Source of the DNA: Candidatus Uhrbacteria bacterium
GTDB lineage: Bacteria; Patescibacteriota; Patescibacteriia; UBA9934; GWF2-40-263
Direction: 5' to 3'
Length of the DNA stretch: 54,262 nucleotides
NCBI GenBank assembly: GCA_016206085.1
Contig: JACQSF010000002.1
Span: 1 to 54,262, forward strand
Below are positions 52,478 through 53,866 of this stretch, piece after piece. Numbering within the stretch: position 1 is the stretch's first letter; every line of letters starts with the position of its first letter. The position numbers were made by a program, and so were the translations under genes. Under the pieces are notes generated by a model. That model saw only the letters and a list, made by a program, of their open reading frames with translations, searched no databases and was not told where the DNA came from.

Positions 52478-53866
52478 ATGCGTTCGACCTCCCTCGTTTC
52501 CTTCCTTGTGGCCCTCGGGCTCGCCTCCACCGCGCTCGCCGCGCCCCCCAACTGGACCGGCTTCGCCGGCCTCGTCGACGCCGACCGCGACGGCTACCCC
52601 GCCTTCACCGGCACCTCGACCGCGGCCAGCACCGGCTACACCGGGGCCATCGACTGCAATGACACCCACGCCAACATGAACCCCGGCCAGACCGAGGTCG
52701 TCGGCGACGGAATCGACCAGGACTGCTCCGGCAGCGACAGCGTCTTCCCCGTCTCGGATCCGACCGTGGCCCGCTACCGCGCGAACTACGGCTCCTGGAA
52801 CGCGAACACCTTCATCACCGAGTACGCCCGTTGCAAGGCGGCCGGCGAGTGCGAGCTCGACGACGTCGCCGGCACGATGAAGATCAAGCCGGCGAACGCG
52901 GACACCCACGTCTTCCGGGACATCTACGTCGGCACCGTCAAGGTGCTCGGCGCGGACGGCATCCGCGAGGTCGTCACCCTCGAGGAGGCGTCGCACTTCC
53001 GCGGCGGCAACACCAGCGGCGGCACGAGCGGCGTGGGCAAGTCCTACGTCGACGCGAGCAGCGGTGTCCTCCGTGAGGAGGCCCGCAAGGCCGAAGAGGC
53101 CAGGCTCGCCGCCGACGCCAAGCACGACGCGGCCCTCGCCGCCATCCAGGCCGACAACGACCTGCGTGATGGCGTGATCAACGACCACGGCCGCTCGATC
53201 GCCGGCCTCGAAGGCGCCCTCGCGCTGCAGGCCGACGCGCTCGACGCCGAGGCCAAGACCCGGCGCGAGGCCGACACCGCCCTCTCCGGGCGCATCGGCT
53301 CCGCCGAGTCCAACGCCTCGACCGCGCTCACCACCGCCAACAGCGCGGCCGCCCACGGGCCGCTGCTCGAGGCCTACGCCCAGGGCGGATTCGTGGCCGG
53401 AACCCCGGTGACCGACGACGGTGACGTGGCCCGCAATGGCTTCGGCGGCGGTGGTGGTGCTGGGATCAACTTCGGCCTGGACGGTGACGGCTACCGCGTC
53501 AACGGCTTCGTCGACACCATCATCGGTGGCGACGGCGGAGCGGGCCCGGCCCACTCCGAGTCGATCGGTGCGGAGGTCACCTTCGACGCCGGCTCCGGCT
53601 GGCATCTCGGCCCCTTCGCGGCCTACAGCATCCGGCACACCCAGCCCAACGCGCTGGAGAGCCAGGTCGTCGGCAAGAACCCCCTGGTCGGCCTCTCGGT
53701 CGCCGCGCCCTTCGCCCCCAACGGCGCCGCCCACGGCCTCTTCCAGGCCCGCGTCGGTTGCGGTCCCGAATTCGTCGGCATGTCCGGCGACTCGGTGACC
53801 AGCGGCGTCAGCCTCGGCTGCCGCGCCACCATCGGCATCGGCGGAGGGGTCGGCGCGCTCCAGTAG
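52478..53866 (+). CDS. Secreted protein: MopE-like DC.D...PG..E..DGIDQDC motif, Ala-rich coiled coil, putative C-terminal beta-barrel
   Basis: Signal peptide ending ALA, DCNDTHANMNPGQTEVVGDGIDQDCSG, heptad stalk, about 8 alternating Gly/aromatic strands. Nearly all codons end in C/G. Confidence 0.85.
   Translation: MRSTSLVSFLVALGLASTALAAPPNWTGFAGLVDADRDGYPAFTGTSTAASTGYTGAIDCNDTHANMNPGQTEVVGDGIDQDCSGSDSVFPVSDPTVARYRANYGSWNANTFITEYARCKAAGECELDDVAGTMKIKPANADTHVFRDIYVGTVKVLGADGIREVVTLEEASHFRGGNTSGGTSGVGKSYVDASSGVLREEARKAEEARLAADAKHDAALAAIQADNDLRDGVINDHGRSIAGLEGALALQADALDAEAKTRREADTALSGRIGSAESNASTALTTANSAAAHGPLLEAYAQGGFVAGTPVTDDGDVARNGFGGGGGAGINFGLDGDGYRVNGFVDTIIGGDGGAGPAHSESIGAEVTFDAGSGWHLGPFAAYSIRHTQPNALESQVVGKNPLVGLSVAAPFAPNGAAHGLFQARVGCGPEFVGMSGDSVTSGVSLGCRATIGIGGGVGALQ

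Follow-up and report, generated by a model that had tools for sequence, protein, structure and literature searches.

How does a bacterium from a lineage thought to lack an outer membrane come to carry a gene for what looks like an outer-membrane protein (OMP), and what would it do with the product? Beta-barrels of the OMP type are taken to mark cells that have two membranes and the Omp85 machinery. The question arises from a 54,262-nt stretch of DNA (hereafter, the window, which is contig C32 of the assembly) from a Candidatus Uhrbacteria genome (877 kb in 34 contigs; 83% complete, 1.3% contamination), the source being an ultra-small groundwater bacterium. At 52478–53866 on the (+) strand, the window contains a coding sequence of 462 amino acids (aa) plus stop, the sole open reading frame (ORF) in the final 2 kb, for which a preliminary description made from the sequence alone had proposed an adhesin-like protein ending in an outer-membrane-type barrel. 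We find that the C-terminus is predicted with high confidence to fold as an outer-membrane-type eight-stranded barrel, and we give an even chance to the reading in which the gene product is a lineage-specific surface fibril, anchored by that barrel independently of the beta-barrel assembly machinery (BAM).

The predicted barrel, identified with AlphaFold2 and Foldseek, occupies aa 293–459 (53354–53854, (+) strand). In a full-length AlphaFold2 model built on a 15-sequence alignment, this region forms eight long antiparallel strands of 13–20 residues with a predicted local distance difference test score (pLDDT) of 80–92, and the C-terminal 175 residues modelled alone reached a mean pLDDT of 88.1 and a predicted template modelling (TM) score (pTM) of 0.81, with all five models at 85.6 or above. 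Foldseek searches of the PDB with the full-length and barrel models listed 50 matches each, all of them outer-membrane barrels, and no lipocalin, avidin or sandwich fold appeared among these listed matches. The best eight-stranded matches of the barrel model were OmpW (TM 0.60/0.58), NspA (0.57/0.63), OprG (0.57/0.49) and Ail (0.51/0.56), and the best matches from a viral structure library were phage-encoded OMP barrels. The outward face of the strands is hydrophobic (0–13% charged residues); Gly and near-invariant E/D/R are abundant on the inward one. Where the termini lie, the strands are joined by short turns (3, 2 and 2 residues), compared with loops of 13, 5, 7 and 3 residues on the far side. 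The ~170 aa of alternating Gly/aromatic strands recognized in the preliminary description correspond to these eight strands, and the outer-membrane-type barrel suggested there is upheld by prediction; the soluble beta-sandwich offered as its alternative is disfavoured by the hydrophobic outer face and by the membrane-barrel fold matches.

Further support for the strand registry, independent of AlphaFold, comes from Cys428 and Cys448, which covary perfectly among 35 sequences (both present in 7, neither in 28, one alone in 0) and lie equidistant from the predicted turn between strands S7 and S8. The seven sequences with the pair belong to two distant subgroups. If formed, a Cys428–Cys448 disulfide would indicate an oxidising, extracytoplasmic location. 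The barrel is single-copy in the genome; a Pfam scan of 14 members returned no match to it at E ≤ 10, nor did a PDB sequence search for the family's barrel return any.

Next, we asked what envelope machinery accompanies such a barrel. Profile searches found Omp85/BamA (PF01103) in 0 of 72 genomes of the source's taxonomic family, the source genome included, with positive diderm controls, and LpxC likewise in 0 of the 72, with matches in the expected diderm control genomes; the earlier premise that BAM and lipopolysaccharide (LPS) machinery are lacking thus holds across the family. Pfam-recognizable OMP barrels are near-absent throughout the phylum, with 1 of 401 genomes above the cut-off. Patescibacteria are treated as monoderm in the review literature (PMC11665869), and a paper on Candidate Phyla Radiation (CPR) pili assumes that there is no outer membrane (PMC13278184). 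Our literature searches, incomplete in coverage, turned up no earlier account of OMP-like barrels for any of the Patescibacteria.

The rest of the protein is a secreted head and stalk. It begins with a typical Sec signal peptide (aa 1–21; 52478–52540, (+) strand), MRSTSLVSFLVALGLASTALA followed by APP, which has an AxA cleavage site (between ALA and A) and no lipobox Cys; it was recognized from the sequence, and its N-terminal pattern is conserved among homologues. The homologue alignment backs the ATG at 52478, which has a GGAG 10–13 nt upstream, in place of the database gene call P0001 (452 aa), which starts 10 codons downstream at 52508 and truncates the signal peptide. An acidic DxDxDG loop (aa 34–39) and a MopE-type Cys motif (aa 59–87) follow at 52577–52738 on the (+) strand. 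Met1, Pro24, D34, D36, D38, C60 and C83 are invariant in the 15-sequence alignment. The motif provides the single Pfam domain of the protein (PF11617; E = 1.6e-9, 38.2 bits versus a gathering cut-off of 27), and the MopE structure 2vov was matched by profile at E = 7.6e-4, so that the signal peptide and the MopE-like Cys motif of the preliminary description are both confirmed. Judged from sequence, membership in PF11617 is that of a motif family only and carries little functional information, and AlphaFold2 modelled the MopE loop at low confidence.

Beyond the motif lies a small alpha/beta head domain (aa 94–172; 52757–52993, (+) strand; pLDDT 62–80), for which a region-restricted search matched members of its own protein family only. 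The stalk (aa 195–291; 53060–53350, (+) strand) is a single helix of ~97 residues and ~14 nm in the AlphaFold2 model and includes the Ala-rich segment EAKTRREADTALSGRI (aa 258–273). The helix is amphipathic with a periodicity of ~3.5–3.6, and gap lengths in the aligned stalks include 7, 14 and 21; the stalk is probably an oligomeric coiled coil. No alternative anchor (transmembrane helix, lipobox, sortase signal or SLH domain) was found in the protein. PDB sequence searches with two profiles gave only the MopE motif and coiled-coil noise, and an NCBIfam scan gave nothing meaningful, its only match, to SseD in the helix, being rejected as sub-threshold and spurious.

Subsequently, we examined how the family is distributed. 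A word-index search identified 15 full-length homologues (38–65% identity), and an exhaustive phmmer search with the barrel against 1.84 billion representatives recovered 12 clusters, nearly all of 436–509 aa (one of 294 aa), with no diderm OMP among the matches. The named homologues and the syntenic contigs are assigned to Candidatus Uhrbacteria or Patescibacteria; P0017, from Desulfuromonas, matches the MopE motif only. Across the order, a barrel profile matched 17 of 161 genomes, all from one family and including 7 of the 8 genomes of the window's genus. The profile matched 0 of 400 other genomes sampled phylum-wide, and a broader version matched 3 of 401 genomes across the class, all from the same family.

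The gene also keeps its place. In more than 15 independent assemblies, a conserved 5′ run consisting of an AI-2E transporter, three small genes, a PDZ protein and a Wzz/GNVR protein leads to the barrel gene in the same order. We also inspected this slot in eight further genomes of the family that gave no automated match: six of them hold a gene of ~500 aa weakly matching the head profile, five of which also match the barrel profile (E = 2.6e-11 to 0.013), one holds a gene of similar size with a high GC content at third codon positions (GC3) and no profile match, and one has housekeeping genes instead. A fixed slot combined with sequence divergence indicates a fast-evolving, positionally conserved gene and not a recent import.

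Two genomes bear on the relation of the family to known OMPs. The profile of the family aligns with a divergent orthologue in G415 (hhalign probability 90%, E = 1.7e-6; hidden Markov model E = 5.7e-11), whose barrel is a weak match to Pfam OMP_b-brl (E = 0.0064). In G417, whose genome has no Omp85, the slot encodes a 414-aa protein (L032, 9026–10270, (+) strand) that combines a signal peptide with a coiled coil and a barrel. This barrel scores above the OMP_b-brl cut-off (29.1 versus 28.7 bits) and ends in GVGYYF, a classic beta-signal. Sequence homology between the family barrel and the G417 protein was tried and rejected (hhalign E = 0.17 and 0.06), and with no such link the G417 protein is treated as a syntenic analogue only. 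The G415 and G417 members may together provide a thin link to true OMP barrels.

The gene also differs from its surroundings in codon usage. Its GC3 is 0.935, with 327 of 463 codons (71%) ending in C, compared with 0.35–0.61 in the other 21 ORFs of the window, in agreement with the extreme C/G-ending usage reported in the preliminary description; a GC island of 70–78% coincides with the ORF, with ~50% GC on either side. The preference for C extends to all codon families (CTC > CTG, CCC > CCG, GTC > GTG, ACC >> ACG; NNC:NNT = 102:5) and is common to the downstream MopE genes. Translational selection is rejected as its cause, since highly expressed housekeeping genes do not have it (EF-Tu, EF-G, S12, AtpB and enolase; GC3 of 0.52–0.61), and the GNN-anticodon tRNAs present in the genome do not account for a bias that is gene-specific. 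The GC3 of the orthologue exceeds the local median by 0.12–0.36 in every relative examined, for example 0.33 versus 0.17 in a neighbour in an AT-rich genome and 0.66 versus a background of 0.41. This scaling with background points to a persistent gene-specific force and argues against a single foreign donor; single-donor horizontal transfer is rejected on this ground. Selection on the mRNA and biased gene conversion at a recombining surface locus are candidate forces.

Comparable codon usage occurs elsewhere in the genome (median GC3 of 0.56), where ~25 other ORFs have a GC3 of 0.78–0.98 with a C fraction at third positions of at least 0.45, among them C7:12460–13347, C15:58246–59418, C10:30908–36706, C8:49048–50619, C26:12583–13758 and 11092–11442 in the window. 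Several of these ORFs start with signal-peptide or lipoprotein-like N-termini, and a Pfam scan of ten of the other high-GC3 genes gave no informative matches.

The non-coding DNA 5′ of the gene is more conserved than the protein. It contains a structured RNA of 94 nt (52200–52295, (+) strand), previously undescribed, in which an outer helix of 19 pairs surrounds a hairpin of 7 pairs. The loop of this hairpin, CCUCCUCCU, is invariant as YCUCCUCCU and resembles the anti-Shine-Dalgarno tail of 16S rRNA, CACCUCCU. Across 19 sequences, 98.2% of cells are paired (33–49% with partner columns slid), double changes occur at 13 pairs (7.0 ± 1.7 in shuffles; 0 of 500 reached this number), and all 7 inner pairs covary. 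The many G-U pairs and the covariance-model scores (89 bits sense versus 34 antisense) place the RNA on the strand of the gene. A promoter-like site (52126–52154, (+) strand; TTGACA-17-TATCTT with TG before the −10 hexamer), recognized by consensus match only (10/12), predicts a transcript start ~40 nt 5′ of the RNA, and this region is 89% identical in G454, the closest relative. An Rfam cmscan (E ≤ 1) over 51400–54262 returned no match overlapping 52200–52295.

Within the family, 52 of 72 genomes have the RNA at a single locus, as do 84 of the order's 161, spread over at least 5 families. The distance from the RNA to the start codon varies from ~120 to 350 nt. At six loci from families outside f1, it stands in the same synteny and is followed by a high-GC3 gene (0.72–0.87) whose product has a signal peptide, often a Cys-rich head, mostly a coiled-coil-like segment, and a Gly/aromatic-rich C-terminal region of ~170–200 aa with beta-strand character, one ending in LVLGKF. 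Pfam recognized no OMP domain in these six slot proteins; their sequence features may reflect an order-wide "stalked barrel". The RNA could be a leader at the 5′ end of the gene's transcript or a small RNA of its own, encoded ahead of the gene. A second, weaker copy (27–43 bits) lies on the opposite strand ~150–230 nt upstream of the main copy in relatives G434, G412, G415, G413, G419, G457, G411, G409 and G417, and is not present in the window. Among known RNAs, the ompA 5′ UTR (untranslated region) stabilizer, the leaders of S-layer genes, and the C-rich-loop small RNAs RsaE and RoxS are comparators: like them, the RNA would form a stable stem-loop close to where an envelope transcript begins, and its pyrimidine-rich loop could pair with purine runs of Shine-Dalgarno type, but it differs in belonging to no Rfam family, in its variable distance to the start codon, and in its lack of special complementarity to its own ribosome-binding site.

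The overall architecture has parallels among diderm proteins. In its predicted fold (TM ~0.5–0.63), the C-terminus resembles OmpW/OprG, NspA, OmpX/Ail and the OmpA N-domain (clan MBB; PF13505), with which it shares eight long antiparallel strands, a hydrophobic exterior, an interior rich in Gly and charge, and short turns on the side of the termini. Unlike these small barrels, it follows a head and a long helix in one fused chain, its family has neither a sequence match nor a terminal aromatic beta-signal, and the lineage that encodes it lacks Omp85, LPS genes and, so far as known, an outer membrane. The OmpM/SlpA tethers of Negativicutes and Deinococcus (PMC10628300) likewise combine an N-terminal binding domain, a coiled-coil stalk and a C-terminal barrel, with the stalk on the periplasm-equivalent side, but here there is no SLH match, the barrel has 8 strands rather than being large and porin-sized, and there is no outer membrane to tether. 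A head-stalk-anchor order with a C-terminal beta-barrel is also seen in trimeric autotransporter adhesins such as YadA and EibD (the latter a weak coiled-coil match) and in the Helicobacter Hop adhesins BabA and SabA. Trimeric autotransporters contribute 4 strands per chain to a joint 12-stranded barrel through which the passenger is exported; in contrast, a complete 8-stranded barrel per chain is predicted here, with the head in cis and no passenger export implied, and no YadA_anchor or Hop Pfam domain was matched in the protein. With Methylococcus capsulatus MopE and other PF11617 proteins, it shares one copy of the 28-residue Cys/Asp motif, and everything beyond this short motif is unrelated.

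Taken together, the reading to which we give an even chance is as follows. The protein would be exported by Sec as a fibril. Its small head would unite an acidic motif of MopE type, binding metal or calcium, with an alpha/beta domain private to the family; a helical stalk ~14 nm long would follow, with the 8-stranded OmpW/NspA/OmpX-like barrel at the C-terminus as the only candidate anchor. Small OMP barrels fold into lipid bilayers in vitro without BAM, and this one would do the same, leaving both of its termini, and hence the stalk and head, on the side of insertion; because the stalk joins the barrel on the side of both termini, no passenger export is needed. The simplest site would be the cytoplasmic membrane of the producing cell, on its outer face, with the stalk reaching across the wall so that the head would be displayed at the surface. 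In that position, the head may take part in calcium-dependent adhesion, in concert with the MopE-repeat lipoproteins whose genes lie immediately downstream, and the gene would be the first in a positionally conserved, fast-evolving surface-protein locus that is led by the RNA and written in extreme C-ending codons. We infer the insertion into a membrane, the choice of that membrane, the oligomeric state and the adhesive role.

Several observations weigh against this reading. To our knowledge, there is no example of a beta-barrel anchor in a bacterial cytoplasmic membrane, and it is unclear why a barrel would be used in preference to a helix or lipid anchor. All of the structural evidence is prediction from 14–15 sequences; the hydrophobicity of the outer face is weaker in strands S4–S6; and the family ends in GxGALQ/K/R (GALQ here), so that the terminal aromatic beta-signal is not present. 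The Ala-rich coiled coil of the preliminary description stands as a long amphipathic helix, but not all family members keep a clean heptad register. Finally, pairing of the RNA loop with the gene's own ribosome-binding site was considered and rejected, the complementarity being no better than random, which leaves the link between RNA and gene positional only.

An unlikely alternative places the barrel in another cell; the preliminary description had named insertion into, or mimicry of, a host outer-membrane protein as a possible role. In this version, the head would be held at the producer's own surface, for example by the MopE lipoproteins, and the barrel would be inserted from outside into the outer membrane of a diderm host, with the stalk spanning the gap, to form a trans-cellular tether or a small conduit. 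Such an anchor would suit a lineage without an outer membrane of its own, and it likewise keeps the stalk and both barrel termini on the cis side, with no passenger crossing the membrane; fast evolution at a fixed slot is as expected of host-range determinants, and some Patescibacteria parasitise Gram-negative hosts (10.1101/2024.03.08.584096). Against it, an LPS outer leaflet strongly hinders spontaneous insertion, and binding of the head to the producer's own surface is an assumption. As for a pore, a small one would accord with the Gly-rich interior and with channels of the OmpW/OprG type as the best match, but the near-invariant charged residues inside suggest that the lumen is occluded, as it is in OmpA/OmpX.

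We also consider it improbable that the barrel is not embedded in a membrane at all and that its hydrophobic surface serves oligomerization or the binding of lipid or another hydrophobic ligand. Three barrels could then lie under a trimeric stalk or take part in an S-layer-like lattice, making the protein a wall or S-layer component, possibly an abundant one. In favour of this, oligomers are implied by the length of the stalk, no BAM is present that could insert a barrel, and the 5′ RNA and codon bias resemble what is generally known of abundant surface-layer genes. However, the listed fold matches are integral membrane barrels, so low an outer-face charge over strands of 13–20 residues is at odds with a non-membrane role, and, as highly expressed housekeeping genes lack the codon bias, high expression is not demonstrated.

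The wider proposal, that an order-wide, RNA-led, hypervariable stalked barrel is a BAM-independent inter-bacterial membrane harpoon driven into the outer membrane of a diderm host, is decidedly speculative, and we rate its chances as low. If true, the harpoon would be the attachment point of episymbiosis, and perhaps a small conduit, and the anti-Shine-Dalgarno-like RNA together with the C-ending codon dialect would amount to a dedicated expression programme for a surface arsenal.

It is very improbable that the barrel is a modelling artefact that conceals another beta structure (a larger shared oligomeric barrel, an amyloid-like fold or a solenoid). The alignments are shallow, the family's barrel has no sequence match in Pfam or the PDB, and the Cys pair supports one hairpin only; on the other side stand the pTM and the concordance of the five models, eight strands with conserved dyad alternation and an asymmetry of short and long connections, and the fact that divergent and syntenic members reach Pfam OMP_b-brl. 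Last, the preliminary inference that the gene was acquired from a diderm is not supported. Its recent transfer from a GC-rich diderm, or an assembly or binning chimera that displays an ordinary OMP out of context, could draw on the sharp GC island and on the frequency of MopE motifs in GC-rich diderms, but it is hardly credible given the native flanks and recurrent synteny (on which a chimera is rejected), the one-family distribution in genome searches, no diderm homologue among the 1.84 billion representatives, a GC3 excess that follows each genome's background, and a codon pattern (CTC > CTG, CCC > CCG) common to the neighbouring MopE genes; neither a soluble C-terminal fold nor a diderm contig, the outcomes that would have overturned the preliminary description, was found.

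The remaining features of the locus concern its flanks. A terminator-like hairpin followed by a T run lies 3′ of the gene (53989–54035, (+) strand; stem at 54005–54020 plus a T-rich tail). The terminator region, 53969–54034, is ~85% identical to 33457–33522 of contig C10, in the region after the 607-aa MopE gene, which suggests that the cluster has a common 3′ element. Where the window ends, 141 nt (54122–54262; no strand assigned) overlap the end of C10 (37650–37790), whose reverse complement they match with 100% identity. With this overlap, the barrel gene is followed by three genes for Asp-rich/MopE-repeat lipoproteins (250, 607 and 757 aa), an order that agrees with relatives L004, L018 and L001. 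Palindromes at 52333–52360 (GCAGGC..GCCTGC) and 54033–54080 (CCCCTCC-TTTTTAA-GGAGGGG) recur with 92–100% identity on at least 8 other contigs and appear to be dispersed small repeat elements. Upstream, the conserved 366-aa protein (49632–50732, (+) strand) has a C-terminal PDZ domain and no protease domain recognized by Pfam; by eye, its middle part resembles an HtrA-type fold from which the GNSGG serine motif is absent, and it may be a non-catalytic envelope chaperone.

A conserved, single-copy OMP-like barrel, predicted with confidence in a lineage without BAM, LPS genes or a known outer membrane, would imply one of three options, namely that these bacteria use barrels as anchors independently of BAM, that they deliver the barrel into the membrane of another cell, or that they possess an unrecognized envelope layer. 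Each of these options bears on how the CPR envelope is constructed and how hosts are attached. The protein, being small and expressible, is a concrete object on which to test them, and the RNA and the gene-specific codon dialect offer further handles on surface-protein expression.

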